From: Candidatus Micrarchaeota archaeon | GTDB lineage: Archaea; Micrarchaeota; Micrarchaeia; Norongarragalinales; Norongarragalinaceae | Direction: 5' to 3' | DNA: 64,000 bases | NCBI GenBank assembly: GCA_016207165.1 | Contig: JACQQD010000005.1 | Coordinates: forward strand, 98,736-162,735 | In this document: piece after piece, positions 15,890 to 43,277 of the stretch | How the letters are laid out: every line of letters starts with the position of its first letter | Numbering within the stretch: position 1 is the first letter of the stretch | Made by a program: the position numbers and the translations under genes | Notes under the pieces: model-generated | The model's database searches: none | What the model was told of the DNA's origin: nothing | Seen by the model: only the letters and a program-made list of their open reading frames with translations

Positions 15890-15912
15890 CCCGATTCCGC
15901 CTCTTTTTGTTC

Positions 15913-18900: not shown

Positions 18901-18982
18901 CCCCCCGAATCCTTTTTAAACCCGTTTGGGCATGGTTAGTAGCCTGGAAGCTCAGTTAGCGGTTTTGTTTTCCGGAGATTCG

Positions 18983-18990
18983 TTTAAATA
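18983..18990 (+). promoter_or_regulatory. TATA box (tttaaata) 30 nt upstream of the tRNA-Ser 5' end
   Basis: consensus archaeal TATA at canonical distance from the mature tRNA 5' end. Confidence 0.45.
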
Positions 18991-19020
18991 CGATCGATTC
19001 AAAGAATTTGTTCTTTGAAT

Positions 19021-19249
19021 GCCGGGATGGCAGAACGGTAATGCGCAACCCTGGAAACCCGATTCCTGTCAAGGAGGGACCTCAGGAGCATGCGATGGTT
19101 GGAAGGCAACCATCGCTTCGCTGAATAGGTCGTCATCGGGCCGTTAAGGTTGTGGGCGCAAGCCCTTCTGAGTTCGAAACGAAGAAACGCCTCGAAAGGG
19201 GTTGCGATTGACGGAGTCAATTGCTTCGCTGAAAATCTCAGTCCCGGCG
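19021..19249 (+). tRNA. tRNA-Ser(GGA) precursor with two introns: canonical 37/38 intron (19057-19146, 90 nt, contains a 10-bp hairpin) and a T-loop 59/60 intron (19179-19235, 57 nt)
   Basis: hand-folded: acceptor GCCGGGA/TCCCGGC + G73; D-arm GCA-GAACGGTAA-TGC; anticodon stem CAACC/GGTTG with loop CUGGAA|intron|A; variable arm GGGC-GCAA-GCCC (class II); T-arm CTGAG-TTCGAA|intron|T-CTCAG; followed by TTTTTGTTTT. Confidence 0.6.
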
Positions 19250-19273
19250 TTTTTGTTTTAAAAAGTTGATTCA

Positions 19274-19921
19274 ATGGCTGCCCGAGAAGAAGAACAGGAA
19301 GAAAAAAAGGAGAAGGCCAAGTTCGGCCGCGCGCAGGCAGGCAAAACCGAGGCCAAGGAAAAGCCGAAGGCAAGGCTCCAGCAAAAAATCGACGTCAAGA
19401 AGACGGGCAAAGAAAAAGAGCATTTCCGGGGCATCGTGCGCATCGTCGGCAAAGACCTCAAAGGCCATGTCACCGTGAAAAACGCGTTGCGCCAAGTGCC
19501 GGGCATCGGCCACAACCTGGCGGCTTCCTTGATTCGGGGCGTCATGAAGAACGCGGATTTTGCTTCCGACGAGTTGGTCGGCAACTTGTCGGATGAACAA
19601 CTCTCCCAATTCGAGGTCGTCATCAAGGACCCCCAGAAATTCGGGGTTCCCGCATACCTTTTGAATCGACCGTTGGACCCGGAGACCGGAAAACCGGTGC
19701 ACCGCGTCATGGCGGAACTGACTTTTTCGGTGCGCCAGGACATCAACAAGGAAAAAGACTTGCGTTCGTATCGTGGCTGGCGCCACCAAATGGGCCAGAA
19801 AGTCCGCGGCCAGCGCACCCGCTCGACTGGAAGAACCGGCATGAGCGTGGGCGTGTTGAAGAAGGCGGCGGCCAAGAAGGGCGCCGTACCGGCGGAAGGC
19901 GCCAAGGAAGAAAAGAAGTGA
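19274..19921 (+). CDS. rps13: 30S ribosomal protein uS13 (S13) with Lys/Glu-rich N-terminal extension
   Basis: 215 aa; core ...[33 protein letters not shown]...; N-terminal 45 aa [11 protein letters not shown]... Confidence 0.9.
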
Positions 19922-19925
19922 TGGC

Positions 19926-20552
19926 ATGGGCGACCCTAAGAGAAACCGCAAGCAATTCGAGGGCCCCAAGCGGTTGTGGGACAAGAAGCGCATCGACGAA
20001 GAAAAGGCGTTGCGCGAGGAATTCGGCCTCAAAAACGCGCGCGAGCTTTGGAAGATGCAGACGATTCTGCGCCGCATCCGGCGCGAAGCCAGGCGGCTGT
20101 TGTCGAAAAAAGGCGCGGACTTGGACCGGCGCACCAATCAACTCATGGGCCGCGCCAAGCGCTTCCTCATTTCCAATCCTGCCGCGACGGTGGACGACGT
20201 GTTGTTGCTGACGCCCCGCGACATTTTGTCCCGGCGCTTGCAGACCATCGTCGTCCGCAAGCACTTGGCCCGCACCAACCGCCAAGCCCGCCAATTCATC
20301 GTGCACGGCCACATTTCCGTCCAGGGCCAGCGCGTCACCGCCCCGTCGTACTTGGTGAGCTTCCAAGAGGAAGACCAAATCAATTGGTACAAGCACCCGT
20401 TGCAGACCGCGCCAGCGACTTCGGACCAAAGCGCCACCGAAGAAAACGGCGAAAAACAAAAGACGGCCAAGGCCACGCCCGTGCAAGACGTTCAACCCAC
20501 ACCTACCGGGGACGAAGCCGAGCCGGCTGAACCCGAAGCGGAGGCGGCTTGA
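19926..20552 (+). CDS. rps4: 30S ribosomal protein uS4 (S4) with acidic C-terminal tail
   Basis: 208 aa; ...[12 protein letters not shown]...S4 domain...; tail [12 protein letters not shown]. Confidence 0.9.
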
Positions 20553-21034
20553 TCATGGCAGACGACGAACAGAGAACGCCAAGCGGCCCGCCGCGCCGAC
20601 GCGGCCCATTCCACCACCGCGACGACCAGCCGAGAAAAGTCTTGCCCAAGGAAGGAAAATGGGGCATTGCGTACCTGTATTCCTCGAAGAACGACACGAT
20701 CATTACTGTCACGGATTTAAGCGGAGCCGAAACCATTGCGAAAGCCTCTGGAGGCATGGTCGTGAAAAGCTCGCGCGAGAAGGGCTCGCCGTACGCCGCC
20801 ATGCAGTCCGCGTTTCTCGTCGCCAACAAGGCCAAGGAGCGGGGCTTGTCCGGCATCCACATCCGTGTGCGCGCCCCCGGCGGCCACGGGTCCAAGACTC
20901 CGGGTTCCGGTGCCCAAGCGGCGATTCGCGCCTTGGCGCGCAGCGGCTTGCGCGTGGGACGGATTGAAGACGTGACTCCCATTCCAACGGATTCGACGAA
21001 GCGTCCGGGCGGAAAACGAGGTCGGCGCGTGTGA
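20549..21034 (+). CDS. rps11: 30S ribosomal protein uS11 (S11)
   Basis: 161 aa, ...[33 protein letters not shown]...[11 protein letters not shown]... Confidence 0.93.
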
Positions 21035-23805: not shown

Positions 23806-25290
23806 TCACTGGGGCGCGTTGGGCTTCATTTTCTTGAAGTACCACAGTGTCCCGCCCAACGCGAGAATCAGCACGAGCACGCCGCCGATGATGACGAAGT
23901 CCACGTCGTTTCCTTTCGGTGGAAGCGTTCCCGCCCGGTTGGCCAGTTGCGAGGCTTGCGTTTGAACGGCTTCAAATCCGGCTTGTCCAGCGGCGGCGCC
24001 CGACGTGCCCAAAACGGATATGGACGACGTGAGGTTGGCGTTGAGTCCATCCAGTTCTTTCTTCATTTCCTGGACGCGGGCATCGGATTCCCCGTATTTG
24101 CGCTGGGCTTCCGTGACGTTGGCGTCTGCGGCGGCGATGGCCGATACGGCGAGCCGAAATTGCGTGGAAGCGGACTCGAAAGCCAAAACCAATGCGTCCA
24201 GTTCCGCGTACTTGGCGTCAAAGCTTTCCGTCGCGCCGCTTTGCTGGACGGTTTGCAGTTCCTGTTTCAAGGCGTCTTTCTTGGCGGTGATTGCCGTGAG
24301 GTTCACGCTGCCGCCAGCGCTGTACTCGGCGGTGAGGTTGGCGATGCGGGCCTCGATTTTCGTGGTTTTTTCCGCGCGAAGGGCTCCAGCCGCTCCTTTT
24401 TGCGCGCCTTCCAGGCGGGCGACCGTCTCCGTGAAGACGACGTCGACGAGTTGGTCTGCGGAGCGCAACGCCTTGTTGGAGAACGTGTTTTGGATTACGG
24501 AAAGCGCGGTGCTGGCGTTCGCGACAAAATCGCACGTGTGCGGCGTTCCGGACTTGTAGAACGTGGCTTTCAGGATGAACGAGAAATCGCCGCTGGCGTT
24601 CAACGTGGCGTACGCTGAAGACACCGTCGTGTACTCGCGGCTAAGCGTGGCCGCGCTGTCGCGCAGCACGCCGACGGATGCCAGGATGGCGTCGCGGTTG
24701 CCTTGCGCCACGGTTTCGTTGAACGTGCCGGCTTTCTCCGCGAATTGGTCGTAAGCCGCCGCGTAAGCGGGAAACGAGTTGTTGATTTGCTGGATGGCTT
24801 GGTATTCGGATTTGTACGTGTCGCTTTTGCCTTCCTCTCCATTGGATCGCTCAATCAGGTAGTACAAGCCGATGTTGGCTTTCCCGATGCGGATCGTGCG
24901 GCGGGTAATGCTTTCCACAAACGTGTCGGCTCCAATGCGGCAGTCGCCGAGGACTTCGCGGATGATGGCTTCATTGGTGGACGCGGTGGCCGCGTGCTGG
25001 GCGAAGTCTTGGTCGTCAAAGAGCTTTTGCGCGTACGCGTCCAGGATGGGCTTCAATTGCGTTTTTTCTTTGACTGGCTCGAATGTGCCGTCGGCGGGTT
25101 TCAGTACCACGGACGGCGTGCCGTCGATTTTAAGCACGCTGTACGTCGTGCCCCCAACGCCGATTTCGTCAATGACCTTGCTTTCGCCGGTCTTGACGTA
25201 GTGCTCGGAAACTTGCACGGCGGTTAAGCCGAACGCGGTGGCGGATGCGAAAACCAATATTAAAAGTGCTGAATTGAGTCGGATGTCCAT
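23806..25290 (-). CDS. secreted surface protein: signal peptide, Ala/Thr/Gln-rich coiled-coil region with multiple N-x-S/T sequons, C-terminal TM anchor + KKMK
   Basis: MDIRLNSALLILVFASATAFG signal; ...DFVIIGGVLVLILALGGTLWYFKKMK C-terminal anchor; track ORF extends to TTG 25347 abutting tRNA-Tyr. Confidence 0.6.
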   Translation of the reverse strand: MDIRLNSALLILVFASATAFGLTAVQVSEHYVKTGESKVIDEIGVGGTTYSVLKIDGTPSVVLKPADGTFEPVKEKTQLKPILDAYAQKLFDDQDFAQHAATASTNEAIIREVLGDCRIGADTFVESITRRTIRIGKANIGLYYLIERSNGEEGKSDTYKSEYQAIQQINNSFPAYAAAYDQFAEKAGTFNETVAQGNRDAILASVGVLRDSAATLSREYTTVSSAYATLNASGDFSFILKATFYKSGTPHTCDFVANASTALSVIQNTFSNKALRSADQLVDVVFTETVARLEGAQKGAAGALRAEKTTKIEARIANLTAEYSAGGSVNLTAITAKKDALKQELQTVQQSGATESFDAKYAELDALVLAFESASTQFRLAVSAIAAADANVTEAQRKYGESDARVQEMKKELDGLNANLTSSISVLGTSGAAAGQAGFEAVQTQASQLANRAGTLPPKGNDVDFVIIGGVLVLILALGGTLWYFKKMKPNAPQ

Positions 25291-25348
25291 AAGGCTTAAT
25301 AAAACGGGGAATCCCTTATAATGCTTGCGCAAATTGCGGTTGCGCAAT

Positions 25349-25497
25349 CCCGCTGTAGCTCAACCTGGCAGAGCACCTGACTGTAGGACTGCGGACCGTT
25401 TTTGTAGGTACGTTTTCCGGTTACAGCCTGCTCTGTCTTTAGAGACAGATTCCTGAAAGAAATCAGGGTGTTGCCAGTTCAAATCTGGCCAGCGGGA
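25349..25497 (+). tRNA. tRNA-Tyr(GUA) precursor with ~75-nt canonical 37/38 intron (25387-25461)
   Basis: acceptor CCCGCTG/CAGCGGG + A73; D-arm GCTC-AACCTGGCA-GAGC; anticodon stem CCTGA/TCAGG with loop CUGUAG|intron; variable GTGTT; T-arm GCCAG-TTCAAAT-CTGGC. Confidence 0.75.
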
Positions 25498-25507
25498 CTT
25501 TCTCTTT

Positions 25508-27189
25508 TTATGGACTTTTGGGTCCGAATTTTTGTATGGCTTTGGTTACGCCTTGTTCTACTGACGTCACCAAATCCTCTTTGGTCAAGTATTCCATGGC
25601 GGCCGAGTGCAAGATTTTGTTCTTGACCCGCGGGTTGGTCACCGCCAAGTACACGTCGCCGCCGGCTTTCTTGCGGCTTTCCACGATGCCATCCAAGATG
25701 GCAACCGCGGAAGAGTCCATGTAGTCCACGTCCAGCAAGTCCAACACCAATACCTTGCATGTTTCCCTCGGCGTTTCGTCCGAGATTCTTTCCAGCCGGT
25801 ACGCTGAACCAAAGAACAGGGGGCCGCTGACGCGGTAGGTGCGCGCGATGCCGGACACGTCCGGCGCCAGAGTCGAGATTGTGACGGCCGGTGCCGGCGC
25901 GGGTACCAACTTGATTTCCACGTTCTCGCTCATTTTCTTGATGAAGACCAGACCCGCCAACGTGAATCCGATGAGGATGGCGGTCGTCAATTCCAGAAAC
26001 ACGGTGGCCGTCACCGTGGCCAGAAAGACGAGTACGTCGCTTTTGCTGTCGGACAAAAAGTGCTTCAACGCGTCAAAGTCCATGAGGTGGACGGCTGTAA
26101 ACGTCAAGATGCCGGCCAGAACCGCCATGGGAATGAATTGGGCCAGCGGCGCTAACGCCAACAGCACCAATACCAAGAGCCCCGAATGCACTACCGCGGA
26201 GAGCCGCGTTTTGGCGCCGTTTTTAACGTTGGTTGCCGAACGCACGATGACGCCGGTGGCCGCAATGCCGCTGAAAAACGGCACCACGGCATTGGCCATT
26301 CCCTGTCCAACGAGCTCCTTGCTGGAGTTGTGTTTGGTGCCCGTCATGCCATCCAAGGACACGGCGGACACTAGGCTTTCGATGCTGGCAAGCAATGCGA
26401 TGGCCAATGCGGAAGGAAAAAGTTCGTTTAGTTGCGAGAGTGGAAAGTCAGGCACCGCAAAACCCGGGAGACTGGATGGAATGGTGCCGATGTGCGCCAC
26501 GTCCAAGAAAAAATCACGGAAACCCCGGTGGCGGTCACCAGCGCCACAAAGGAAGCGGGAATTTTGTGCGTGAGCCTTGGAATTCCCCAAAGCACGGCCA
26601 AGGTCGTCGCCGACAAAGCCAACGCCGCGAGACTGGCTTGGTTGAGGTGGGAAATCAGTGCAGCCATTTGCGCCAGGGCACCCTCGGCGCTCACAGCTAC
26701 TCCCGACAAGTTGCCCAGTTGTCCTAAAATGATCAGCAAGCCGATGCCGGTCGTGAATCCCACCACTACAGTGTATGGAATGAATTTCACCACCCGGCCG
26801 ATGCCGGAAATGCCCATGGCTATCTGCAGGATGCCTGCCAAAAACCCGGCCATCAACAGTCCTTGGACGCCGAACTTTGCCGCCACGCTATACAACAACA
26901 CGGTCATGGCCGCTGCCGGTCCCGCGACTCCCAATTCCGTGCCGCCGAACACGGCGACAATGGCTCCGCCAATGATGGCGGTGTAAAGACCGTACGCCGG
27001 CGGCACTCCGGAGGCCACGGCGAGAGCCAGACAAAGAGGAATCGCCACCACGGTCACAATGGTGCCAGCGATCACGTCGTGCTTCCAGTGGCGCAGCGAG
27101 AGTTTGGCGGGACGGAAGAGCCCCAGCAAGCCGGAAAGCAATTTCCGGCTGACATAAACGGCCATAGCGGGTCTTAACGGGAGGTGCAT
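25508..27189 (-). pseudogene. SulP-family sulfate/anion permease with C-terminal STAS domain, interrupted by a frameshift in an A6/T6 homopolymer near 26508-26513
   Basis: two overlapping ORFs (26428..27189 N-terminal TM part; 25508..26590 C-terminal TM + STAS ...VLVLDLLDVDYMDSSAVAILDGIVESRKKAGG...); adding one T restores ...GVSVIFFLDVAHIGTIPSSLPGF... Confidence 0.7.
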
Positions 27190-29651: not shown

Positions 29652-29743
29652 TTCTTCTCACCGGGTGTGAGGCGGACTAAGCGCCAGGGGGCGGAGCCCC
29701 CGGGGCTTAGGTGCAACAGTTCTCCGTAGTGGACAACGATCAT
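29623..29743. repeat. short hairpin insertion (29652-29714) flanked by a 29-bp direct duplication of the thiI start region (aacagttctccgtagtggacRacgatcat at 29623-29651 and 29715-29743)
   Basis: direct inspection; the inserted core gaggcggacTaagcgccagggggcggagcccccggggctt shares its ends with a second element at 39399-39476. Confidence 0.6.
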
Positions 29744-29800
29744 GAGGCCCCTTGTGGTCTGGAAAGGGTTTATAGGCTTTCATCGGCACCCAAAAATCCT

Positions 29801-30808
29801 ATGGCCATCGTGTTGGGGTTGACGGGAGAGAATTGTGCGGGTAAGGGGACCGTCGCCGAATACTTGGAACGAAAAGGATTCCACTATTACTCCTTGTCCG
29901 ACGTCATCCGCGAGGAACTCGCGGCGGAAGGCGCGGAGATCACGCGCGAGGCCCTCATTGAAAAAGGCAATCTGTTGCGGGAGACGCAGGGTTCCGACGT
30001 TCTGGCCCGCAAAACCATGGACAAGCTCTCCCACGAGAGGAACTTTGTCGTTGACTCGTTTCGCAACCCCCACGAAGTCAAGGCGTTCAAGAACAAAAAC
30101 AAGAACTTTTTCTTGTTGTACGTCACCGCTTTGCCGGAAGTACGCTTTGAGCGCATGAAGGCCCGCGGCCGCGAGTCGGACCCCAAGACGTTTGACGCGT
30201 TTGAGCGCATCGAAAAAAAAGAGCGGGAAAGCGCGTCGGAACAGCACCAAAGCATTTCCGCTTGCATCGGGCTTGCCGACCGCACCATTGAAAACAACGC
30301 CGACTTTTCGGCGTTGTACGACGCCGTGGACCGAACGCTCGCCGATCTTTCCAAGGAGTTTTCGGTGGACCGGCCATCTTGGGACGAGTACTTCATGGGC
30401 ATCGCAAAGATGGCGTCCACGAGGTCCAACTGCATCAAGCGCAAGGTGGCCGCGGTCATCGTCAAGGACAAGCGCATCATTTCCACGGGCTACAACGGCA
30501 CCCCCCGGGGAACGAGGAATTGCAACGAAGGGGGTTGTCCGCGCTGCAACAACTTCTCGCCGTCCGGCGCTTCCCTGGAGGAATGCTTGTGCTCGCACGC
30601 GGAGGAGAACGCCATCGTCCAAAGCTCGTACCACGGCGTGTCCATTGCCGGGTCCACGATTTACTCGACGTTTTCGCCTTGCCTATTGTGCGCGAAAATG
30701 ATCGTCAATGCGGGAATTCGGGAAGTCGTGTACGTAGCCGAATACAGCGTGTCGGATACCGCGAAAAAAATGTTGCAGGAAGCCGGCGTGCAGCTGAGGA
30801 AAGTCTAG
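29801..30808 (+). CDS. fusion of N-terminal P-loop nucleotide/nucleoside kinase domain and C-terminal dCMP/cytidine deaminase (zinc CDA fold)
   Basis: MAIVLGLTGENCAGKGTVAEYL Walker A at the N-terminus; deaminase motifs ...CIKRKVAAVIVKD...TGYNG...HAEENAI...YSTFSPCLLCAKMIVNAGI...; track ORF begins at GTG 29711 inside the duplicated repeat, ATG 29801 preferred. Confidence 0.7.
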   Translation: MAIVLGLTGENCAGKGTVAEYLERKGFHYYSLSDVIREELAAEGAEITREALIEKGNLLRETQGSDVLARKTMDKLSHERNFVVDSFRNPHEVKAFKNKNKNFFLLYVTALPEVRFERMKARGRESDPKTFDAFERIEKKERESASEQHQSISACIGLADRTIENNADFSALYDAVDRTLADLSKEFSVDRPSWDEYFMGIAKMASTRSNCIKRKVAAVIVKDKRIISTGYNGTPRGTRNCNEGGCPRCNNFSPSGASLEECLCSHAEENAIVQSSYHGVSIAGSTIYSTFSPCLLCAKMIVNAGIREVVYVAEYSVSDTAKKMLQEAGVQLRKV

Positions 30809-33241: not shown

Positions 33242-33333
33242 ACGCGTTTTTCAACGGTTCCCGACGTTTTATAGGTTTGGCCCCGTGGAAAACGCAAGGG
33301 GTATTAAACGAGTTTTTTCAGCAGTTCTGGTGC

Positions 33334-34506
33334 ATGACGGTTTACGACGTCCTGATCATTGGCGCGGGGCCAGCCGGCGGCTCCACGGCGTTCCACGCCG
33401 CCAAAAACGGGCTTAAGACGCTGGTGCTGGAAGAGCATAAGGCCATCGGCGAACCGGTGCACTGCGGCGAGTGCCTCAGCGAACTGGCGATCCGCCGCAT
33501 GGGGTGGAGCTTGCCGGATGAGGTAGTCGCCTTGGACGTGCAAGGCGTGCGCGTCCTGTTTCCAGGCGACACGCAAACCAAGTTGTCGGAACCCGGCTAC
33601 GTCTTGGACAAGCACCTCTTTGAGCAGTGGATCATGGCCCAGGCGCAATCCCATGGCGCCCAGCTGCAGTTGTCCAAGAAAGTCGTCTCCCTTTCCAAAG
33701 CCAGCGGCGTGTGGACGGTGGCGTGCGCGGACAACACGTCTTACCAAGCCCACGTTTTGGTGGATGCTTCCGGCGTGGCGGCAATCGTGTCGCGGCTGTT
33801 GGGCCTCAATGAACGCTTCCAAAGCGTGATTGGCATGCAATACGAAATGCTGGACATTCCCACGGACGGGTACCTGGATTTCTACATTTGGCCGGACTTG
33901 GCGCCGCACGGCTATTTGTGGATGATTCCCAAGAACGACGGCCGCGCCAACGTGGGGCTGGTGACCAACCAGAACACGAAAGCCAAACCCTTTCTAGACG
34001 AATTCGTCCGCAAGATGGGCTGGCAGGACAAGAAAGTCGTCAAGACTTTTGGCGGACTCATTCCCTCTTCGGGTCCCTTGAAAAACACGGTGGCTGACGG
34101 CTTGATGTTGGTGGGGGATGCCGCCGGCTTTACGTCGCCACTTTTTGAAGGGGGCACGCACTTGGGCCTCATGTCGGGCCGCTTTGCCGCGCAAGTGGCC
34201 CAAGAGGCGCTGGAGAAAAACGACGTGTCCCTGGCGGCCTTGAAAAAATACGACGCCTTGTGGCAGGCCGAGTTTCCCGATTACAACAAGCTCATTCAAG
34301 GCAAGATGGCCCTCTACGATTTTTCCGACGAGGAATTGAGTGCGTTGGGTGGCTTGATGCCGCCTGAATTGGCCCACTTGGGTTTTTCGCCGAAAGCCAA
34401 GTTCGCCGTCGACGTGTTGACGAGGAAACCCGGTTTACTGAAAAAGAACCTGTTCTCAGCGCTCAAGGCGTTTGGGTACTCGAGGGCAGAATACTACGGA
34501 TGGTAG
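33334..34506 (+). CDS. geranylgeranyl reductase family FAD-dependent oxidoreductase (archaeal lipid/prenyl saturase-like)
   Basis: MTVYDVLIIGAGPAGGSTAFHAAKNGLKTLVLEE dinucleotide-binding motif; ...GDAAGFTSPLFEGG...; ~390 aa typical of GGR. Confidence 0.7.
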   Translation: MTVYDVLIIGAGPAGGSTAFHAAKNGLKTLVLEEHKAIGEPVHCGECLSELAIRRMGWSLPDEVVALDVQGVRVLFPGDTQTKLSEPGYVLDKHLFEQWIMAQAQSHGAQLQLSKKVVSLSKASGVWTVACADNTSYQAHVLVDASGVAAIVSRLLGLNERFQSVIGMQYEMLDIPTDGYLDFYIWPDLAPHGYLWMIPKNDGRANVGLVTNQNTKAKPFLDEFVRKMGWQDKKVVKTFGGLIPSSGPLKNTVADGLMLVGDAAGFTSPLFEGGTHLGLMSGRFAAQVAQEALEKNDVSLAALKKYDALWQAEFPDYNKLIQGKMALYDFSDEELSALGGLMPPELAHLGFSPKAKFAVDVLTRKPGLLKKNLFSALKAFGYSRAEYYGW

Positions 34507-34509
34507 CCG

Positions 34510-34878
34510 ATGGAAGCCCTGCTCCGCGATTTGAAGCCACTTTTCGAGGAAACCATTGCCCCGGAACGGCTTTCCAAGGGAACGCGAATCGCCATCAACT
34601 CGGACCACAACCGTTTTTTCCGGACGTCGGAACTGGACGGTTTTGCTACCTCCACGCCGGAGACCAAATCCGGGGTCACCCTTTGCGGCAAGCTGCGGAG
34701 AGGATTTTCCGCCGACGACGTCAAGGTGGTTTTTCAACGCCATCAGGCGGCCCTGGTTTCGGGTCCCCATGAAACGTCGGCGTATCACCACGACGGCTAC
34801 GTCGGCATTCAAGTGACCGGCCCCCGCCGGCACGACCGGTTGTATCAACGTCTCCACGAATCGTGGTACTCCCGTTGA
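34510..34878 (+). CDS. hypothetical protein (122 aa)
   Basis: ORF only, 4 nt downstream of GGR-like gene. Confidence 0.3.
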   Translation: MEALLRDLKPLFEETIAPERLSKGTRIAINSDHNRFFRTSELDGFATSTPETKSGVTLCGKLRRGFSADDVKVVFQRHQAALVSGPHETSAYHHDGYVGIQVTGPRRHDRLYQRLHESWYSR

Positions 34879-34987
34879 TTTTTGGGCGCCACGCATCCCT
34901 CGTGGGCACTTCGTCGTCCGTCGGCTGGGTCTTGGTTTTTATTCCTTTTCGTGGTCAAGCACTCTCTGGAGTTGGATGTTCGTGGGC

Positions 34988-36922
34988 ATGAACTTGACGC
35001 ACAAAATCATTTCCGAGCACCTCGTCGACGGCCAAATGGTGGTGGGCGAGGAAATCGGCATCAAAGTGGACCAGACCCTCACCCAGGATGCCACGGGCAC
35101 CATGTCGTTTTTGCAGTTTGAAGCTCTGGGCCTGCCCCGCGTCCAAACCGAAGTGGCCGTTTCCTACGTCGACCACAACATGCTTCAGACGAGTTTCGAG
35201 AACGCCGACGACCACCGGTACTTGCAAAGCGTGGCCCAAAAGTACGGCGTGTACTTTTCACGCCCCGGAAACGGCATCTGCCACCAAGTGCACTTGGAGC
35301 GCTTTTCCGTTCCTGGCAAATTCATGCTGGGTTCCGACTCGCATACCCCCACGTGCGGCGGCATGGGGATGCTTGCCATTGGGGCCGGCGGCTTGGATGT
35401 CGCTGTAGCCATGGGCGGCGGACCGTTTTACACCAAAATGCCGAAAGTCCTGGGCATCCAGTTGAAAGGCAAGCTCCAACGCCACGTGGCCGCCAAAGAC
35501 ATCATCCTGGAGGTACTCCGACGGCTGACTGTCAAGGGAGGCGTGGGGAAAGTCATCGAGTACTACGGCGAAGGCGTCAAGTCGCTGGACGTGTACCAGC
35601 GCTCCACCATCACCAACATGGGCGCGGAACTGGGTTCCACCACTTCGATTTTTCCGACGGACGAAAAAACGCGGGAGTTCCTCAAGCGCCAAGGTCGTGA
35701 AGACGCCTACCAGGAAGTTGGCCCCGACGCCGATGCGACGTACGATGAGCATCTTGAAATCGACTTGAACACCTTGGAGCCCCTTATCGCCAAGCCGCAA
35801 AGCCCGGACAACGTTGTTCCGGTTCGGGAAGTAGAAGGCTTGGCCGTCCAGCAGGTGCTCGTCGGCTCCTGCACGAATTCCTCTTTGAAGGACCTCATGA
35901 CTGTAGCGACGTATTTGAAGGGCAAGAAAGTGCATTCCGACGTCTCCATGGCCCTCTCACCGGGCTCCAAACAGGTCTTCCAGGAAATCGCGCGCAACGG
36001 CGCTTTGGCGGATTTCATCAACGCCGGCGTCCGCGTTCTGGAAAGCGCGTGCGGTCCCTGCATCGGCATGGGACAAGCTCCTGGAAGTGACATGGTTTCC
36101 CTGCGAACATTCAACCGCAACTTCGCCGGACGCTCCGGCACCAAGAACGACAAAGTGTACTTGTGTTCGCCGGAGGTCGCCGTCGCGTCAGCCATCACCG
36201 GCAAAGTCACGGACCCCCGAAGCCTTCCGGACCTCGCCATCCACGTGCCCACCGAGATTGTGATTGACGACTCCATGATTCTGGCGCCGTCGGACGACCC
36301 CGACTCCGTGGAAGTCTTGCGCGGCCCCAACATCAAGCCCGTGCCCCTCAAGGAGCCCGTAACCAATGCGTTGGATGGCGTGGTGCTCATCAAGACGGGC
36401 GACAACGTCACCACGGACCACATCATGCCTGCCGGCGCCAAAATCCTTCCCTTGCGCTCCAACGTGCCCGCGATTTCCGAATTCGTGTTCTGCAACGTGG
36501 ACGCCGATTTCGTCAAACGCGCCAAGGAAAACCACGGCGGTTTCATCGTCGGCGGCGAAAACTACGGACAGGGGTCCTCCCGCGAGCACGCGGCCCTGGC
36601 GCCGATGTACTTGGGTGTCAAGGCCGTGTTCGCCAAGAACTTCGCCCGCATCCACAAGGACAATTTGGTGAACTTCGGCATCGTTCCCCTTGAAATTGAC
36701 GGGAGCACGTACGACGACCTCCAGCAAGGGCACGTGTTGTCCATGGAGGGCGTGCGCGAGGCCCTAGAGTTGGGGTCCACCAGCGTGGAATTGGCCAACT
36801 CGTCAAGCAAGAAGAAATACGCCGCGAAACTCAACTTGACGCCGCGCCAGCGCCACATCATCCTGGCGGGCGGCACACTGAACTGGACGCGGGCAAACGC
36901 GCCCCAAGCCAGCCTGGCGTGA
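34988..36922 (+). CDS. acn: aconitate hydratase (aconitase family; Fe-S ligand motifs ...GSCTNSS... and ...ACGPCIGMGQ...)
   Basis: ~645 aa; ...SDSHTPTCGGMGMLAIGAGGLD...; swivel domain ...GENYGQGSSREHAA... Confidence 0.75.
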   Translation: MNLTHKIISEHLVDGQMVVGEEIGIKVDQTLTQDATGTMSFLQFEALGLPRVQTEVAVSYVDHNMLQTSFENADDHRYLQSVAQKYGVYFSRPGNGICHQVHLERFSVPGKFMLGSDSHTPTCGGMGMLAIGAGGLDVAVAMGGGPFYTKMPKVLGIQLKGKLQRHVAAKDIILEVLRRLTVKGGVGKVIEYYGEGVKSLDVYQRSTITNMGAELGSTTSIFPTDEKTREFLKRQGREDAYQEVGPDADATYDEHLEIDLNTLEPLIAKPQSPDNVVPVREVEGLAVQQVLVGSCTNSSLKDLMTVATYLKGKKVHSDVSMALSPGSKQVFQEIARNGALADFINAGVRVLESACGPCIGMGQAPGSDMVSLRTFNRNFAGRSGTKNDKVYLCSPEVAVASAITGKVTDPRSLPDLAIHVPTEIVIDDSMILAPSDDPDSVEVLRGPNIKPVPLKEPVTNALDGVVLIKTGDNVTTDHIMPAGAKILPLRSNVPAISEFVFCNVDADFVKRAKENHGGFIVGGENYGQGSSREHAALAPMYLGVKAVFAKNFARIHKDNLVNFGIVPLEIDGSTYDDLQQGHVLSMEGVREALELGSTSVELANSSSKKKYAAKLNLTPRQRHIILAGGTLNWTRANAPQASLA

Positions 36923-36976
36923 CGGGCGGTTCACGGTTAAAGCAAAGCAACGGTTAGGGAGTGTGGGATTGAACGC

Positions 36977-38179
36977 ATGGCTGAAAAAATAACGGTGAAC
37001 AACGGCATTCTGAACGTTCCGGACCACCCCATCATTCCCCTCATTGAGGGCGACGGCGTGGGCGTGGACATTACGCCGGTCATGACGACCGTCGTTGACG
37101 CGGCCGTGGCCAAGGCTTCCGGCGGCAAGAAGAAAATTGAATGGAAGCCGATTCTGGCCGGCGAGAAAGCCATTGCCAAGACCAATGAACTGTTGCCCCA
37201 GGAAAGCATTGACGCCATCCAGGAGTACGTCGTCTCCATCAAGGGTCCCCTGACCACGCCGGTTGGCGGCGGGTTCCGGAGCCTGAACGTAACGCTTCGC
37301 CAGGTGCTGGACTTGTACGCGTGCGTGCGGCCCGTCAAGTGGTATCCCGGCATTCCCAACCCCATGAAGCAACCGGAGAAGTTGAACGTCAAAATCTTCC
37401 GCGAGAACACGGAAGACGTGTACGCTGGCATCGAGTGGGATGCCGGCAGTGCCGAAGCCAACAAGCTCATTGAATTTGTCGCCTCCATGGGAAAGAAAAT
37501 CCGGCCCAACTCGGCGGTGGGCATCAAACCCATCTCGGAATTCGGCTCCAAGCGCATCGTTCGCGCGGCCATTCACAACGCCATGAAGTACGGCTTGAGC
37601 AAGGTCACTTTGGTGCACAAGGGCAACATCATGAAGTTCACCGAAGGCGGATTCCGGAAGTGGGGCTACGAGGCCGCCAAGGAGTTTTCCAACACGGTTA
37701 CGGAAGAGGAAGTCGCCAAAGGCGCGTCCGCGGAAGGAAAAATCATCGTCAACGACCGCATTGCTGACTCCATGTTCCAACAACTTTTGCTCCGCCCCGA
37801 TGAATACCAGGTGTTGGCGACCATGAACCTCAACGGCGACTACTTGTCGGACGCCGCCGCGGCGCAAACCGGGGGCCTGGGCATCGCGCCGGGCGCCAAC
37901 ATCAACTACCAGACCGGCGTCGCGTTGTTTGAAGCCACGCACGGAACCGCTCCGAAGTACGCGGGCCAGGACAAAGTCAACCCCGGTTCGCTGTTGTTGT
38001 CCGCCGTCATGATGCTGCGCTACATGGACTGGAAAACAGCCGCCGACTTGGTGGAAAACGCGTTCCAGAAAACCATCGACCAGAAAATCGTTACCTACGA
38101 TCTTTCCCGGCAGATGGAAGGCGCCCAAGAAGTTCGGTGCTCGGAATTCGGGGACGCCATCATCCGGAACATGGATTGA
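36977..38179 (+). CDS. icd: NADP-dependent isocitrate dehydrogenase (prokaryotic homodimeric type)
   Basis: 400 aa; ...[15 protein letters not shown]...[18 protein letters not shown]... Confidence 0.85.
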
Positions 38180-38183
38180 TCGT

Positions 38184-39398
38184 ATGGCTCAACGCGCAAT
38201 CCGTGAAATCGACGCCAAAAACATTTTGGTCCACGCCGGCGTGGCGAAATGGCACGGCGTCTTGGTGGACGGGCAAACGGACTGGAAGACGCTTTCCAAA
38301 GACCACCCGTGGCTGTTGAAGGAAAAGCTGGTGGTCAAGCCCGACCAATGCTTTGGCCAACGAGGCAAGCACGGCTTGGTTTTGTTGAACGCCGATTTGA
38401 AGGGCGTCGAGCAATTCGTGCGGAAAAACATGAACCGGGTCGTTGAATTAAACGGCGTGAAAGGCCCCTTGACGCACTTCTTGATCGAGCCGTTTGTCCC
38501 GCATCAAGCCGAGTACTACGCCGCCATCCAGACCGAGAAAGACCACGACGTGGTTTTTTTCTCCTTGAAAGGCGGCGTGGACGTGGAGGAAAACTGGGAC
38601 CGCATCCAACCATTCAAAGTCGGAGTCCTTGACGACTTGGATTCGGTGTCCTTTGGCTTGCCCAAGATGCCGGAGCGCGACGCGGTCCACGCGTTTCTCA
38701 AGAAACTCTACCGCGTCTTTGCCGAGAACGACTTTTCGTTTTTGGAGTTGAACCCTTTTTGCATGGTGGACGGAAAGCCGGTGCTGCTGGATGCCGTGGC
38801 GCGGCTGGACGACACGGCGGCCTTCAAAGGCAAGTGGAACGTCGAGTTCCCGGCGCCTTTTGGCCGGACGTTGTCCAAGGAGGAAGCCTACATCAAGTCG
38901 TTGGACGAGAAAACCGGTGCGTCATTGAAGCTGACCGTCTTGAACCCGAAGGGAAAAATCTGGACGCTGGTCGCCGGCGGCGGAGCGTCCGTGGTGTACG
39001 CCGACACCATCGTCGACTTGGGCTTCCAAAAAGAGCTGGCCAACTACGGAGAGTATTCCGGCAATCCCAACGACGAAGAAACCTACCTTTACACCAAAAC
39101 CGTGCTGGAATTGTTGGTCAAAGGAAACGGGCAGATTCTTTTGATTGGCGGCGGCATCGCCAACTTCACCGACGTGGCCAAGACCTTCAAAGGCATCATC
39201 CAGGCGCTGAGCGAATTTGCGCCGGCGCTCAAGAAAAAAGGCGTGAAAATATACGTTCGCCGCGGGGGTCCCAACTACCAGCAAGGCTTGGAACACATGC
39301 GGCAACTGGGCGAGAAAACGGGTTTGTCCATCCAAGTCTTTGGCCCGGAAACGCATATGACGAAGATCGTTCCCATGGCGCTTGAGGAGCTGAAATGA
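38184..39398 (+). CDS. aclB: ATP-citrate lyase small subunit AclB-like (ATP-grasp, succinyl-CoA synthetase beta-like)
   Basis: 404 aa; ...EIDAKNIL...VVKPDQCFGQRGKHGLV...; CoA-ligase fold; immediately upstream of aclA-like gene. Confidence 0.75.
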   Translation: MAQRAIREIDAKNILVHAGVAKWHGVLVDGQTDWKTLSKDHPWLLKEKLVVKPDQCFGQRGKHGLVLLNADLKGVEQFVRKNMNRVVELNGVKGPLTHFLIEPFVPHQAEYYAAIQTEKDHDVVFFSLKGGVDVEENWDRIQPFKVGVLDDLDSVSFGLPKMPERDAVHAFLKKLYRVFAENDFSFLELNPFCMVDGKPVLLDAVARLDDTAAFKGKWNVEFPAPFGRTLSKEEAYIKSLDEKTGASLKLTVLNPKGKIWTLVAGGGASVVYADTIVDLGFQKELANYGEYSGNPNDEETYLYTKTVLELLVKGNGQILLIGGGIANFTDVAKTFKGIIQALSEFAPALKKKGVKIYVRRGGPNYQQGLEHMRQLGEKTGLSIQVFGPETHMTKIVPMALEELK

Positions 39399-39521
39399 AT
39401 GCGTTTACATGAGTTTAGGGAAAGGGGCGAGGCGGAGCAAGCGCCAGGGGAAAACCGTAGGTTTGCCCCGGGGCTTGCATGCACGAAGATCGTTCCCATG
39501 GCGCTTGAGGAGCTGAAGTGA
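39352..39521. repeat. second copy of the hairpin insertion (39399-39476) flanked by a ~40-45-bp direct duplication of the aclB 3' end/aclA start region (gcatRtgacgaagatcgttcccatggcgcttgaggagctgaaRtga)
   Basis: direct inspection: 39352-39397 and 39475-39521 nearly identical; core ...gaggcggagCaagcgccagggg-aaaaccgtaggtttg-ccccggggcttgcatgc. Confidence 0.6.
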
Positions 39522-41335
39522 AAAAGTTTATGACTCTTTTCGACGAAAACACGCAGGCCATCATCTTCGGCATGCAAGCCCAAGTCGTCCAACGCATGCT
39601 GGATTTCGACTTCATGTGCGGCCGGAAAACCCCGTCGGTGGCCGCCGTGGTCAACCCTTCGGACACTCGGATGCTGGCCGTCTTTTTCGGTTCCAAGCAA
39701 GTCTTGGTTCCTGTGTACGCGTCCACGAAAGAAGCCTTTCAAAAACATCCCGTTGCCTCGGTGTTCATCAACTTTGCTTCGTTCCGCTCCGCGTTTGACA
39801 CCACGTGGGATGCCTTGGATTTGCCGCAAGTTTTGTCCGTGGCCGTGATTGCCGAAGGCATGCCTGAGCGCGACACCCGGAGGCTTGCGGCGAAAGCCAA
39901 AAAACTTTCCAAGCCCTTCATCGGCCCGGCCACCGTCGGCGGCCTGACGGCGGGTTGCTTCAAGATTGGCAACACCGGCGGTGCCGTGGACGCCATGATC
40001 GACGCGAAACTCTACCGCTCCGGCTCCGTGGGATTCGTTTCCAAGTCCGGCGGCATGTCCAACGAATTGTTCAACCTGCTTTCCCACCACACCGACGGCG
40101 TCTGCGAAGGCATCGCCATCGGCGGCGACCGCTTCCCCGGCACCACGCTTTACGACCACGTGCAACGGTTCGAGAAGGATCCCAAAATCAAGCTCATCGT
40201 CGTCTTGGGTGAATTGGGGGGAACCGACGAGTACGACATCGCCGACGCGGTGGCGAAAAAGAAGATCAAAAAGCCGGTGGTGGCCTGGGTCACCGGCACC
40301 TGCGCGGCGCTTTTTGCCACCGAAGTCCAATTCGGCCATGCGGGCGCCAAGAGCGGTTCCAAGAAGGAAAGTGCGCAAGAAAAAAACGAGGCCCTAAAAA
40401 AAGCGGGGGTCTTCGTTCCGAAAAGCTACGACGACTTCGGTGAACTCATCCAAAAAGTATTCGAGAAGCACGTGGGAAAAATTCCCGCGGAAACGCAAAA
40501 CCCCCCCGTCATTCCGGAAGACTTTTCCGTGGCGGTAAAGAAAAACCGAGTCCGCCGGCCCGCCTCCATCGTGTCCAGCATCTCGGATGACCGCGGCGAA
40601 GACGTGCTGTACCACGGCGAGACCCTGACTTCCCTTCTGGAAAGAAAAGCCAGCCTGGGGGACGTCATCGCTTTGTTGTGGTTCAAAAAGAAGCTTCCCG
40701 CCTGGGCCACTGAGTTTATGGAAATGACGCTCAAAATCACGGCCGACCACGGGCCCGCTGTTTCCGGGGCGCACAACGCCATCGTCGCCTCGCGCGCCGG
40801 CAAGGACTTGGTTTCGTGCCTGGCTTCGGGTTTGTTGACCATCGGCCCCCGTTTTGGAGGCGCCATTGACGATGCGGCCCGCTACTGGCAAGCGGCCGTC
40901 TCTCAAGGACAGGCGCCCAAGGCGTTCGTGGATGAAATGAAAGCCAAGAACGTCTTGATTCCCGGCATTGGCCACCGCGTCAAATCCATCCAAAACCCCG
41001 ACGCCCGCGTGGCCGCGCTCAAGGCCTACGCCCAAAAGCATTTCCCGTCCACCCAGCACCTGCAATTCGCCTTGGACGTCGAGAAACTGACCACCCAGAA
41101 GAAAGGCAACCTGATTCTCAACGTGGACGGCTGCATTGCCGCCTTGTTTCTGGACCTTTTCGATTCCTGCCCCGAGTTTTCCGGCGAGGAAAAAAGACAG
41201 CTGGTGGACATTGGGGTCCTGAATGCCTTTTTTGCTTTGGGGCGAAGCATTGGCATGATTGGGCACGCCATCGACCAAAAACGCCTGCAACAGCCCTTGT
41301 ACCGGCACGACTGGGACGACGTGCTGTACCTCTAA
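39518..41335 (+). CDS. aclA: ATP-citrate lyase large subunit AclA-like (succinyl-CoA synthetase alpha-like CoA-binding + citrate-synthase-like domain)
   Basis: 605 aa; ...SKSGGMSNELFNLLS...VQFGHAGAK... (phospho-His loop); C-terminal ...IPGIGHRVKS... citrate synthase-like; start GTG 39518 or ATG 39530. Confidence 0.8.
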   Translation: MKKFMTLFDENTQAIIFGMQAQVVQRMLDFDFMCGRKTPSVAAVVNPSDTRMLAVFFGSKQVLVPVYASTKEAFQKHPVASVFINFASFRSAFDTTWDALDLPQVLSVAVIAEGMPERDTRRLAAKAKKLSKPFIGPATVGGLTAGCFKIGNTGGAVDAMIDAKLYRSGSVGFVSKSGGMSNELFNLLSHHTDGVCEGIAIGGDRFPGTTLYDHVQRFEKDPKIKLIVVLGELGGTDEYDIADAVAKKKIKKPVVAWVTGTCAALFATEVQFGHAGAKSGSKKESAQEKNEALKKAGVFVPKSYDDFGELIQKVFEKHVGKIPAETQNPPVIPEDFSVAVKKNRVRRPASIVSSISDDRGEDVLYHGETLTSLLERKASLGDVIALLWFKKKLPAWATEFMEMTLKITADHGPAVSGAHNAIVASRAGKDLVSCLASGLLTIGPRFGGAIDDAARYWQAAVSQGQAPKAFVDEMKAKNVLIPGIGHRVKSIQNPDARVAALKAYAQKHFPSTQHLQFALDVEKLTTQKKGNLILNVDGCIAALFLDLFDSCPEFSGEEKRQLVDIGVLNAFFALGRSIGMIGHAIDQKRLQQPLYRHDWDDVLYL

Positions 41336-41810: not shown

Positions 41811-43277
41811 ATGGTGTACCTCGAACTCACGGAAAGCTACCTGCGCCAGAAAAGCCTGGTCCAGCAGAACTTGGACTCCTACAACCGCTTTCTTGAAGAA
41901 AAAATGCAGGAAATCGTGGAAGCCCAAGGGCAAATCGAGCCCCAAGTGGAAGGCTACCTCATCAAACTCGGCAAGATTCGCGCCGAAAAACCCATGGTCA
42001 CCGAAGCCGACGGTTCCCGTCGCCCCCTGCTTCCCATGGAGGCCCGCATGCGCGACTTGTCCTACACGGCGCCCTTGTTTTTGGAAATGACGCAGGTCGT
42101 CAACGGCGTTGAAAAGCGTCCGGAAGACGTGTTCATCGGCGAATTGCCCGTCATGCTGAAAAGCAAGTTGTGCTACCTGCACGGCAAAAACCACTCGGAA
42201 TTGGAGTTGGCCGGCGAGGACGCCAAGGACTCGGGCGGGTACTTCATCATCAACGGCACCGAAAAAAGTTTGATGACGCTGGAAGACTTGGCGCCCAACC
42301 GCATCATGGTCTCCCGCGAAAAAGACAAGGAAGTCGTGCAAGGCAAGATTTTTTCCACCCGCACGGGTTTCCGCGGACGCTGTACCGTGGACCGCTCCCG
42401 CGAAGGCAAGCTCACCGTGACGTTGCCTTCCTACAACAAGTCCCTGGAACTCATCTTGGTGTTGTACGCCTTGGGCTTGGACTCCGAGGAGAAAGTCGTC
42501 TCCGCTTTCGGAAAAGAAAAGGAAGTCCACAACGATTTGCTTTTGAATTTCGAACTCAACCCCGTCAAAAACAAGAAAGACGCCCTGGAGACCATCGGCA
42601 AACGCGCGGCGCCCGGCCAACCCGTCGACTACCAGCTCAAACGCGCCGAATTGTTGTTGGACCGCTACTTGTTGCCGCACATCGGCGTGACGCAAAAAGA
42701 CCGCCTCAGCAAGGCGTACTTCTTGTCCCGCATGTCGGAACGCGTGATTTTGGTTGCGCACAAGAAACGCGCGGTGGAAGACAAGGACCACTACGCCAAC
42801 AAACGCCTCAAGATCGCCGGCAAACTCATGGAGGAACTCTTCCGCTACGCCTTCGGATTTCTCGTCAAGGACGTCGCCTACCAAATCGAGCGCGCCAACG
42901 TCCGAGGACGTCGGATGAGCATGTTCGCCTTGGTCCGTCCCGACGCGTTAACCGACCGCATCAAGTACGCCATGGCCACCGGCAACTGGGTGGGAGGCCA
43001 CACCGGCGTGTCCCAACCCATGGACCGCTACAACTTCATTTCCGCCGCTTCATTCTTAAAGCGCGTCACGTCGCCTTTGGCCAAAAAACACCCGCACTAC
43101 AAGGCCCGCGACCTGAACGGCACGCACTGGGGGCGCCTGGATCCCAACGAGACGCCGGAAGGCCCCAACTGCGGCCTGGTCAAAAACCTCGCGCTGTACT
43201 GCGAAGTCACCACCGGAATTAAAGAACAAGCCGTTGAAGCCACGCTGAAGAAAATGGGGTTGACCATGCGCGTATGA
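41811..43277 (+). CDS. rpoB2: DNA-directed RNA polymerase subunit B'' (Rpo2 N-terminal half; split rpoB)
   Basis: 488 aa; ends 43277 with ATGA overlap into B'. Confidence 0.93.
   Translation: MVYLELTESYLRQKSLVQQNLDSYNRFLEEKMQEIVEAQGQIEPQVEGYLIKLGKIRAEKPMVTEADGSRRPLLPMEARMRDLSYTAPLFLEMTQVVNGVEKRPEDVFIGELPVMLKSKLCYLHGKNHSELELAGEDAKDSGGYFIINGTEKSLMTLEDLAPNRIMVSREKDKEVVQGKIFSTRTGFRGRCTVDRSREGKLTVTLPSYNKSLELILVLYALGLDSEEKVVSAFGKEKEVHNDLLLNFELNPVKNKKDALETIGKRAAPGQPVDYQLKRAELLLDRYLLPHIGVTQKDRLSKAYFLSRMSERVILVAHKKRAVEDKDHYANKRLKIAGKLMEELFRYAFGFLVKDVAYQIERANVRGRRMSMFALVRPDALTDRIKYAMATGNWVGGHTGVSQPMDRYNFISAASFLKRVTSPLAKKHPHYKARDLNGTHWGRLDPNETPEGPNCGLVKNLALYCEVTTGIKEQAVEATLKKMGLTMRV

Follow-up and report, generated by a model that had tools for sequence, protein, structure and literature searches.

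Among described ATP-citrate lyases (ACL), the closest counterpart of the enzyme treated here is ACLY-A/ACLY-B of Methanothrix (Methanosaeta) concilii (6HXI, 6ZNW), which has the same two-subunit architecture but belongs to a methanogen. Eukaryotic ACL is either a fused protein, as in human ACLY, or consists of two subunits, as in the ACLA/ACLB of plants and fungi, and it exports acetyl units from mitochondria in a compartmentalised cell. In Chlorobium limicola and C. tepidum, AclBA (6HXJ) catalyses the same reaction with the same two-subunit domain architecture and is part of a demonstrated autotrophic cycle together with 2-oxoglutarate:ferredoxin oxidoreductase (OGOR), pyruvate:ferredoxin oxidoreductase (PFOR) and fumarate reductase (FRD). 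Homologous domains occur in the citryl-CoA synthetase (CCS) and citryl-CoA lyase (CCL) of Hydrogenobacter thermophilus (6HXQ, 6HXP), which cleave citrate via citryl-CoA, and Desulfobacter postgatei, a sulfate-reducing bacterium with a complete cycle, offers a precedent for ACL run in the citrate-forming direction in an oxidative pathway (Moller et al. 1987, as cited in PMC12137691). We analysed a 64-kb stretch of contig JACQQD010000005.1 from a groundwater Candidatus Micrarchaeota archaeon, a member of the DPANN archaea in which no such compartment as the mitochondrion exists (the whole stretch is called the window in the following, and positions refer to it). Here the ACL genes aclB and aclA stand directly behind genes for aconitase (acn) and NADP-dependent isocitrate dehydrogenase (IDH; icd).

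The analysis showed that ACL, aconitase and NADP-IDH genes are linked in a cassette that is conserved across domains and in whose slots non-orthologous replacement has occurred. The sequence-only reading of this DNA had described four co-linear open reading frames (ORFs) on the + strand, including a 404-aa ATP-grasp subunit and a 605-aa subunit with a GHAGAK loop and a citrate-synthase-like C-terminus; all of these are present, with the right lengths and coordinates, except that the acn start it gave, 34988, is the second in-frame ATG of the gene, the first being at 34976. The four genes are the following:

acn, 34976-36922, + strand: aconitate hydratase of 648 aa, a single polypeptide of the TIGR01342/NF005558 type
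icd, 36977-38179, + strand: homodimeric NADP-dependent isocitrate dehydrogenase of the E. coli/B. subtilis type, 400 aa
aclB, 38184-39398, + strand: ACL beta subunit of 404 aa with ATP-grasp and citrate-binding domains, the equivalent of M. concilii ACLY-A
aclA, 39518 (GTG) or 39530 (ATG) to 41335, + strand: ACL alpha subunit of 605 or 601 aa, the equivalent of M. concilii ACLY-B

NCBI uses the ATG at 39530 as the start of aclA (601 aa), and the residue numbering below follows the 605-aa GTG form. To establish the identity of the two ACL genes, AclB and AclA were compared with all sequences of the Protein Data Bank (PDB); the scores against the relevant enzymes, for the beta subunit (AclB) and the alpha subunit (AclA), were:

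Methanothrix concilii ACL (6HXI_A / 6HXI_B): beta 459 bits, alpha 770 bits
human ACLY: beta ~370 bits, alpha 740 bits
Chlorobium limicola ACL: beta 178 bits, alpha 399 bits
citryl-CoA synthetase, large / small subunit: beta 65 bits, alpha 84 bits
succinyl-CoA synthetase (SCS), beta / alpha: beta 25-32 bits, alpha ~113 bits
citryl-CoA lyase: beta not applicable, alpha 64 bits
citrate synthase (CS): beta not applicable, alpha 38 bits or less

The best PDB scores were thus those of the M. concilii enzyme, to which the alignments run end to end and with which the catalytic residues are shared. In Pfam, AclB matched the ATP-citrate synthase ATP-grasp domain PF24948 with 211 bits (cut-off 83) and the ACL citrate-binding domain PF16114 with 283 bits (cut-off 26.8), and its motifs GGGASV, ANFTD and VRRGGPNY are invariant in an alignment of 11 AclB sequences. 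AclA contains a CoA-binding domain (PF02629), a Ligase_CoA domain (PF00549) and a C-terminal citrate-synthase domain (PF00285, residues 397-596), the lyase module being fused to the alpha subunit inside the 605-aa protein. All eight residues of human ACLY that were checked (E599, H760, H900, H975, R976, D1026, R1065 and R1085) are conserved in AclA (E113, H274, H411, H486, R487, D537, R576 and R596), His274, which aligns with human H760, lying in the phospho-His loop QFGHAGAK. In line with the literature on ACLY and citrate synthase, we take H274 to be the phosphorylated histidine and H411, H486 and D537 to form the lyase triad; in M. concilii the Asp that aligns with D537 is mutated in 6ZNW, this being precisely where that structure differs from 6HXI. 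The role of the citrate-synthase-homology module of ACL is debated, and one article argues that it is allosteric and not catalytic (PMC10115795). With ACL-type Pfam domains, 370-770 bits to ACL structures and the catalytic residues kept, we identify aclB and aclA, by homology, as the genes of a true heteromeric ACL (EC 2.3.3.8) with predicted citrate-cleaving activity, which bears out the annotation given by the sequence-only reading.

AclA scored far higher against M. concilii ACL and human ACLY than against the C. limicola enzyme, and we therefore assign the ACL of the window, on these scores, to the archaeal/eukaryote-like group and not to the Chlorobium-type enzymes of the reductive tricarboxylic acid (TCA) cycle. 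AclA is ~52-60% identical to the eukaryotic proteins, with all catalytic residues aligned. As a rough check only, we reconstructed a bootstrapped neighbour-joining tree of 120 AclA homologues, which is distance-based and lacks a distant outgroup. AclA of the window fell into a Micrarchaeota sub-clade (97-100% bootstrap support), and three eukaryotic two-subunit sequences were nested in a neighbouring clade together with Micrarchaeota-labelled sequences (95-98% bootstrap support), but the join of the window sub-clade to the clade containing the eukaryotes received only 21% support. It has already been published that the two-subunit ACLA/B of eukaryotes form a clade branching with DPANN (PMC11976288). 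The best matches of AclA include Micrarchaeota, Diapherotrites, Odinarchaeia, Promethearchaeota and Thermoplasmata, and the view that ACL is rare in archaea, on which the sequence-only reading had relied, is outdated in the light of these five groups.

The aconitase matched NF005558 (aconitate hydratase) with 977 bits (cut-off 612) and TIGR01342 with 958 bits in NCBIfam, and in an alignment to mitochondrial aconitase (1ACO) it keeps the Fe-S ligand motifs GSCTNSS and ACGPCIG with the three cluster cysteines. Its identity to the aconitases that occupy this slot in eight related loci (L001, L002, L003, L006, L007, L010, L011 and L012) is 55-79%. Icd matched the NCBIfam model of prokaryotic NADP-IDH, TIGR00183, with 615 bits (cut-off 567), and scored 523 bits against the IDH of B. 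subtilis (1HQS) and 502 bits against that of E. coli. In the alignment to IDHs of the E. coli/B. subtilis type it keeps a conserved stretch and a Y-D-x-x-R motif, which we take to be the NADP determinants Lys344, Tyr345, Val351, Tyr391 and Arg395 of E. coli IDH. All four enzymes of the cassette, as judged from these alignments, look intact.

The cassette was compared with 10 other individually examined loci, archaeal and bacterial, and the same order acn-icd-aclB-aclA was found in eight of them. The arrangements, with that of an Asgard locus, are:

L001 and L002, Micrarchaeota relatives: acn-icd-aclB-aclA with a geranylgeranyl reductase gene upstream and rpoH downstream, 66-79% identity
L006 and L010, more distant Micrarchaeota: acn-icd-aclB-aclA
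L007, another archaeal contig: acn-icd-aclB-aclA among ribosomal genes
L011, an archaeal contig of 785 kb: acn-icd-aclB-aclA
L012, metagenome-assembled genome (MAG) of Chloroflexi: acn-icd-aclB-aclA with one inserted gene
L003, MAG of Bacillota: acn-icd-aclB-aclA
L008, Asgard: aclB-aclA-icd

Chance does not explain this order, since it is found again in related loci of two domains. To our knowledge, eukaryotic ACL genes do not lie in a cassette with aconitase and IDH genes. We further scanned the metagenomes of the JGI with the AclB alignment and inspected 8 kb on either side of aclBA in the best 80 of 571 relatives, with the following distribution:

acn-icd-aclB-aclA, the full cassette: 18 of 80 loci
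icd-aclB-aclA: 10 of 80 loci, the contig being cut just upstream in 9
acn-aclB-aclA with no icd between: 18 of 80 loci
acn-aclB-aclA with a downstream Iso_dh-family gene: 9 of 80 loci, one cut upstream
aclB-aclA with a downstream gene for an aconitase/IPM-dehydratase large subunit: 11 of 80 loci
aclBA alone: 12 of 80 loci, with a full view of both sides in only 2
aclB only: 2 of 80 loci, on truncated contigs

An aconitase-family and/or IDH-family neighbour of aclBA is therefore present in 66 of these 80 loci (18 with the full cassette and 48 with a partial or permuted one). In the archaeal/eukaryote-like ACL clade, genes for aconitase and IDH are as a rule linked to those for ACL, and the sequence-only reading overstated its case in calling the arrangement noteworthy, as it is the standard layout of this clade. 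The genes that fill the slots are not always orthologous. The IDH slot holds the E. coli type (TIGR00183) in the DPANN and Asgard loci and in L009 (the window, L001, L002 and L006-L010), and the eukaryote type (NF006156/TIGR00127), which is non-orthologous to the TIGR00183 family, in L003, L011 and L012; in other metagenome loci a gene of a two-subunit-type aconitase family or a divergent Iso_dh-family gene stands downstream of aclA instead, and the bacterial versions have an IclR-family regulator between acn and icd. Because the function is kept while the family in the slot is swapped, there is good evidence that selection holds the activities of ACL, aconitase and NADP-IDH together.

Two other arrangements of ACL genes were encountered among the relatives. 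In a member of the Candidatus Woesebacteria (candidate phyla radiation; L004, 10001-12954), a divergent aclB-aclA pair, 36-37% identical to that of the window and with the lyase domain present, has neither aconitase nor IDH beside it, its neighbours being a PP2C phosphatase, YdjC, CofD and a glycosyltransferase. In a second family (L009, 8001-11087; proteins P0003-P0014, P0018, P0020 and P0022), a complete AclA is followed by a second, partial copy in the same protein, of mostly ~1000-1040 aa (866 aa in P0020). The second copy corresponds in most members to residues ~142-605, comprising the CoA-ligase and the lyase module but lacking the CoA-binding domain of the N-terminus, and in L009 a separate aclB lies upstream of the duplicated AclA, with icd and a gene for phosphoenolpyruvate (PEP) carboxylase downstream. 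We know of no description of this duplicated architecture.

Within the window, the operon-like layout of ACL with aconitase and NADP-IDH that the sequence-only reading proposed is real in strand, spacing and recurring order, and the four genes probably form one transcription unit, to judge by strand and spacing, with gaps of 54 nt (acn/icd), 4 nt (icd/aclB) and 119 nt (aclB/aclA). The last of these is unusually long and weighs against co-transcription; it coincides with a repeat at the junction of the two ACL genes. Two features may be listed here:

putative promoter, 34936-34948, + strand: TATA-like box (GGTTTTTATTCCTTTTCGTG region) ~30-40 nt 5' of the acn start, read from the sequence
aclB-aclA junction, 39360-39517, + strand: perfect direct repeat of 35 nt, with copies at 39360-39394 and 39483-39517, 123 nt apart (in frame)

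The TATA-like box is a putative archaeal promoter of the cluster, and its motif TTTTATTC(C/T)TTT is common to the window and L001 but not found in L002. A second TATA-like box (TTTAAAA) precedes rpoH, the next gene downstream of the cassette, suggesting that the cassette is probably separate from the RNA polymerase operon. The repeat duplicates the last 12 codons of aclB directly before the GTG of aclA, and with the second copy the stop codon of the repeated aclB tail and the GTG start of aclA come to overlap as GTGA; between the two copies lies a GC-rich spacer of ~85 nt. The junction repeat is absent from L001 and L002, in which the gap between aclB and aclA is ~20-30 nt, and an independent Logan contig (L005) begins at ~39488, within the second repeat copy. 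We considered whether the ~85-nt spacer might be a mobile mini-element or a structured RNA, and rejected both: it occurs as a single copy in the window, its fold z-score of -2.15 is not compelling, and there is no Rfam match. Upstream of the cassette, the ORFs 34510-34878 (+) and 34456-34896 (-), between the geranylgeranyl reductase gene and acn, were treated as non-genes (no Pfam match for either; a low coding score for the one on the + strand). A conserved link to lipid synthesis through the geranylgeranyl reductase (33277-34506) was likewise rejected, this gene being syntenic only in L001 and L002 and not in L006, L007, L010 or L011.

The reactions of the three enzymes suggest what the cassette might do. 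ACL would catalyse citrate + ATP + CoA <-> acetyl-CoA + oxaloacetate + ADP + Pi, aconitase citrate <-> isocitrate, and the NADP-IDH isocitrate + NADP+ <-> 2-oxoglutarate + CO2 + NADPH, and these three consecutive reversible enzymes would tie the 2-oxoglutarate/glutamate pool to acetyl-CoA and oxaloacetate. We read the cassette as a probable self-contained 'citrate node' in a heterotroph whose TCA cycle is branched or incomplete. In net cleavage, 2-oxoglutarate from scavenged glutamate, or imported citrate, would be turned into acetyl-CoA and oxaloacetate, the former being available for mevalonate and isoprenoid lipids and the latter for aspartate or PEP. We consider it fairly probable that the cassette is such a reversible link of 2-oxoglutarate with acetyl-CoA and oxaloacetate and that its host is presumably not autotrophic. 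Citrate cleavage for acetyl-CoA supply, which the sequence-only reading had offered as its second option, is plausible, and we slightly favour net cleavage, giving it somewhat more than half of the weight that we place on non-autotrophic functions, because cleavage is what the ACLs of eukaryotes, its nearest relatives among characterised enzymes, are known for.

Several observations weigh against this interpretation. The direction of flux is not readable from sequence, both ACL and NADP-IDH being reversible. The cassette also resembles the clusters of citrate synthase, aconitase and IDH genes that serve to make 2-oxoglutarate. In L009 a gene for PEP carboxylase (PEPC) is found two to three genes away from those for ACL, and one for an AMP-forming acetyl-CoA synthetase (ACS) stands beside the cassette in L011; both fit the citrate-forming direction at least as well. 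In L006, an NAD-type E1/E2/E3 2-oxoacid dehydrogenase complex, lipoyl synthase and PEP carboxykinase (PEPCK) are encoded beside the cassette, and where a pyruvate dehydrogenase (PDH) supplies acetyl-CoA, as in this locus, it is not evident why ACL would be needed to provide it. Finally, OGOR, PFOR, fumarate reductase, citrate synthase and hydrogenases could be encoded outside the 64-kb window (the contig has 204 kb).

Much of this speaks at the same time for a second possibility, to which we give tentative weight, namely that ACL acts as an ATP-conserving substitute for citrate synthase and the cassette is run oxidatively to 2-oxoglutarate and NADPH (acetyl-CoA + oxaloacetate + ADP + Pi -> citrate + CoA + ATP, then isocitrate -> 2-oxoglutarate + NADPH). 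An energy-limited archaeon with a small genome would in this way keep the energy of the thioester as ATP while making 2-oxoglutarate and glutamate or feeding an oxidative TCA cycle. ACL is freely reversible and, as noted for D. postgatei, can run in this direction; the gene set corresponds to the first three steps of the oxidative TCA cycle and mirrors the clusters for 2-oxoglutarate synthesis mentioned above. The enzymes encoded nearby would supply the substrates, oxaloacetate by the PEPC of L009 and acetyl-CoA by the ACS of L011 and the PDH-type complex of L006. Moreover, neither the window nor any of the retrieved loci showed a citrate synthase: with the lyase domain of AclA as a probe, tblastn returned only the domain itself and ACL matches. 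The cleavage role of eukaryotic ACLs counts against the citrate-forming direction, however, as does its dependence on high oxaloacetate and a low ATP/ADP ratio. Furthermore, citrate synthase is given as present in Micrarchaeota in the phylum-level table of a preprint (bioRxiv 10.1101/2022.10.25.513756), and the Micrarchaeota of acid mines have it (PMC5864196).

A role in autotrophy, in which the cassette would cleave citrate within a complete reductive TCA cycle by which the Micrarchaeota host fixes CO2, was the first option of the sequence-only reading and is, in our opinion, improbable. ACL is a classical marker of that cycle, aconitase and NADP-IDH represent the two preceding steps, two-subunit 2-oxoacid:ferredoxin oxidoreductases and succinate dehydrogenase/fumarate reductase occur in some Micrarchaeota (PMC5864196), and the text of the preprint regards Micrarchaeota as 'theoretically capable of complete rTCA' (bioRxiv 10.1101/2022.10.25.513756). 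Its supplementary table lists MBI4360688.1 as the ACL of a groundwater 'Candidatus Micrarchaeota'. The enzyme set of that preprint was, however, assembled across different MAGs, as the accession prefixes MBU, RLG, MBI50, HII and EET indicate, and completeness of the cycle is thus not shown for any one genome. OGOR, PFOR, fumarate reductase and citrate synthase were not found among the Pfam-scanned ORFs of the 64-kb window, and OGOR, PFOR and FRD were not found beside the cassette in the 80 metagenome loci with the queries used. Using queries taken from related loci, tblastn gave no match to POR-type 2-oxoacid:ferredoxin oxidoreductase (POR), PDH (E1/E2/E3), PEPCK, PEPC or ACS in the window beyond self and ACL matches, and none to POR, PDH, PEPC, PEPCK or ACS in the 80 metagenome loci, over the 8 kb to either side of aclBA; a POR-type 2-oxoacid:ferredoxin oxidoreductase gene does lie ~4 kb downstream of aclA in L011. 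The NAD-type complex beside the cassette in L006 is of an irreversible kind, and the ACL is of the eukaryote-like clade and not of the Chlorobium type. Described Micrarchaeota are amino-acid-auxotrophic heterotrophs with PDH, a near-complete oxidative TCA cycle and respiration, and those studied lack most amino-acid and nucleotide biosynthesis (PMC5864196), auxotrophies that are hard to reconcile with autotrophy. A reductive TCA route for autotrophic CO2 fixation is thus unsupported, and a DPANN archaeon with the complete cycle, at least facultatively autotrophic, seems very doubtful to us. Effectively refuted by the homology evidence, finally, is a misidentification of an SCS-like ligase with a citrate-synthase-like domain, or of a CCS/CCL pair, as ACL: the best named NCBIfam matches are indeed SCS alpha, SCS beta and citryl-CoA lyase, because NCBIfam has no ACL model, but all are far under their cut-offs, whereas the ACL-specific Pfam domains are matched at 211 and 283 bits, the scores of 459 and 770 bits for ACL structures contrast with 25-113 bits for those of SCS, CCS, CCL and CS, every ACL catalytic residue that was checked is present, and the lyase is fused to the alpha subunit, so that the outcome named beforehand by the sequence-only reading as contrary to ACL, SCS plus a separate citrate synthase, is not what was found. 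The CCS/CCL system in particular was rejected, because it requires a small CCS subunit without lyase and a separate lyase, as in H. thermophilus, and the scores against its structures are only 64-84 bits (65, 84 and 64 bits).

The gene itself is already known. AclA is 100% identical to MBI4360689.1, annotated in NCBI as 'ATP citrate synthase [Candidatus Micrarchaeota archaeon]' on a contig of 204 kb, and the neighbouring accession MBI4360688.1, one number below it and presumably the adjacent aclB, is the one already cited as a Micrarchaeota ACL. No account of the four-gene cassette was found in literature searches, which covered open-access papers only and are not proof of absence. The identical protein, together with an intron-containing tRNA and the split rpoB that directly follows rpoH downstream of the cassette, shows that the window is archaeal, and the nearest genome loci are MAGs of groundwater Micrarchaeota. 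The window consists mostly of archaeal information-processing genes (ribosomal proteins, secY, rpoH/B''/B'/A, rps12, rps7, EF-2 and EF-1alpha), the metabolic cassette being placed just upstream of rpoH.

Several other features of the window were recorded. The rpoB gene is split into B'' (41811-43277) and B' (43274-45082), and rpoA is unsplit, a single 'A-type' ORF of 1154 aa (45079-48543, +) with Rpb1 domains 1-5; in the relative L001, too, rpoA is one long ORF (16919-20569). A split into A' and A'' is typical of Eury- and Crenarchaeota, the gene is unsplit in Thaum- and Korarchaeota, and a secondary fusion is reported for Pacearchaeota, in a data set that did not contain Micrarchaeota (PMC5484517). 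An ORF of 997 aa (15907-18900, +), situated between cbf5/truB and the rps13-rps4-rpoD block, combines three peptidoglycan-hydrolase domains of bacterial type, Peptidase_M23 (residues 247-354), Amidase_3 (596-807) and an SLT lytic transglycosylase (848-975), and its product may serve as a weapon or as a tool against the walls of bacterial cells. A sulfate permease of the SulP family is broken into two overlapping frames (25508-27189, -), of which ORF 26428-27189 covers profile positions 2-203 and ORF 25508-26590 positions 217-380 and the STAS domain; it is either a frameshifted pseudogene or an assembly error. The intron-containing tRNA mentioned above spans 149 nt (25349-25497, +), with an implied intron of ~75 nt, was matched by Rfam and missed by ARAGORN, and lies between the broken permease and a 513-aa ORF without a Pfam match. 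This ORF (23806-25347, -) is one of three large ones with no Pfam match at E <= 0.001, the others being 49761-51998 (+, 745 aa) and 13137-14135 (+, 332 aa); all three have positive coding scores (0.14-0.37 per codon), the 332-aa ORF being the weakest. A protein in which a nucleoside/nucleotide-kinase-like AAA domain is fused to a dCMP/cytidine deaminase domain is encoded a few kb from the cassette (29711-30808, +) and was also found in L006 (1143-2144).

If an autotrophic cycle were real after all, primary production would extend to a DPANN archaeon with a reduced genome, and a complete reductive TCA cycle in Micrarchaeota would mean giving up the picture of DPANN archaea as obligate heterotrophic symbionts; what was found here points away from this. 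What the comparison does indicate is that ACL, aconitase and NADP-IDH travel across domains as a module whose slots are refilled by non-orthologous enzymes, which argues for a strong functional coupling, and the module offers a compact target for learning the direction of ACL in energy-limited anaerobes. The two-subunit enzyme of eukaryotes has some of its closest prokaryotic relatives among the ACLs of Micrarchaeota, whose native gene context may therefore inform the origin of the cytosolic acetyl-CoA route of eukaryotes.

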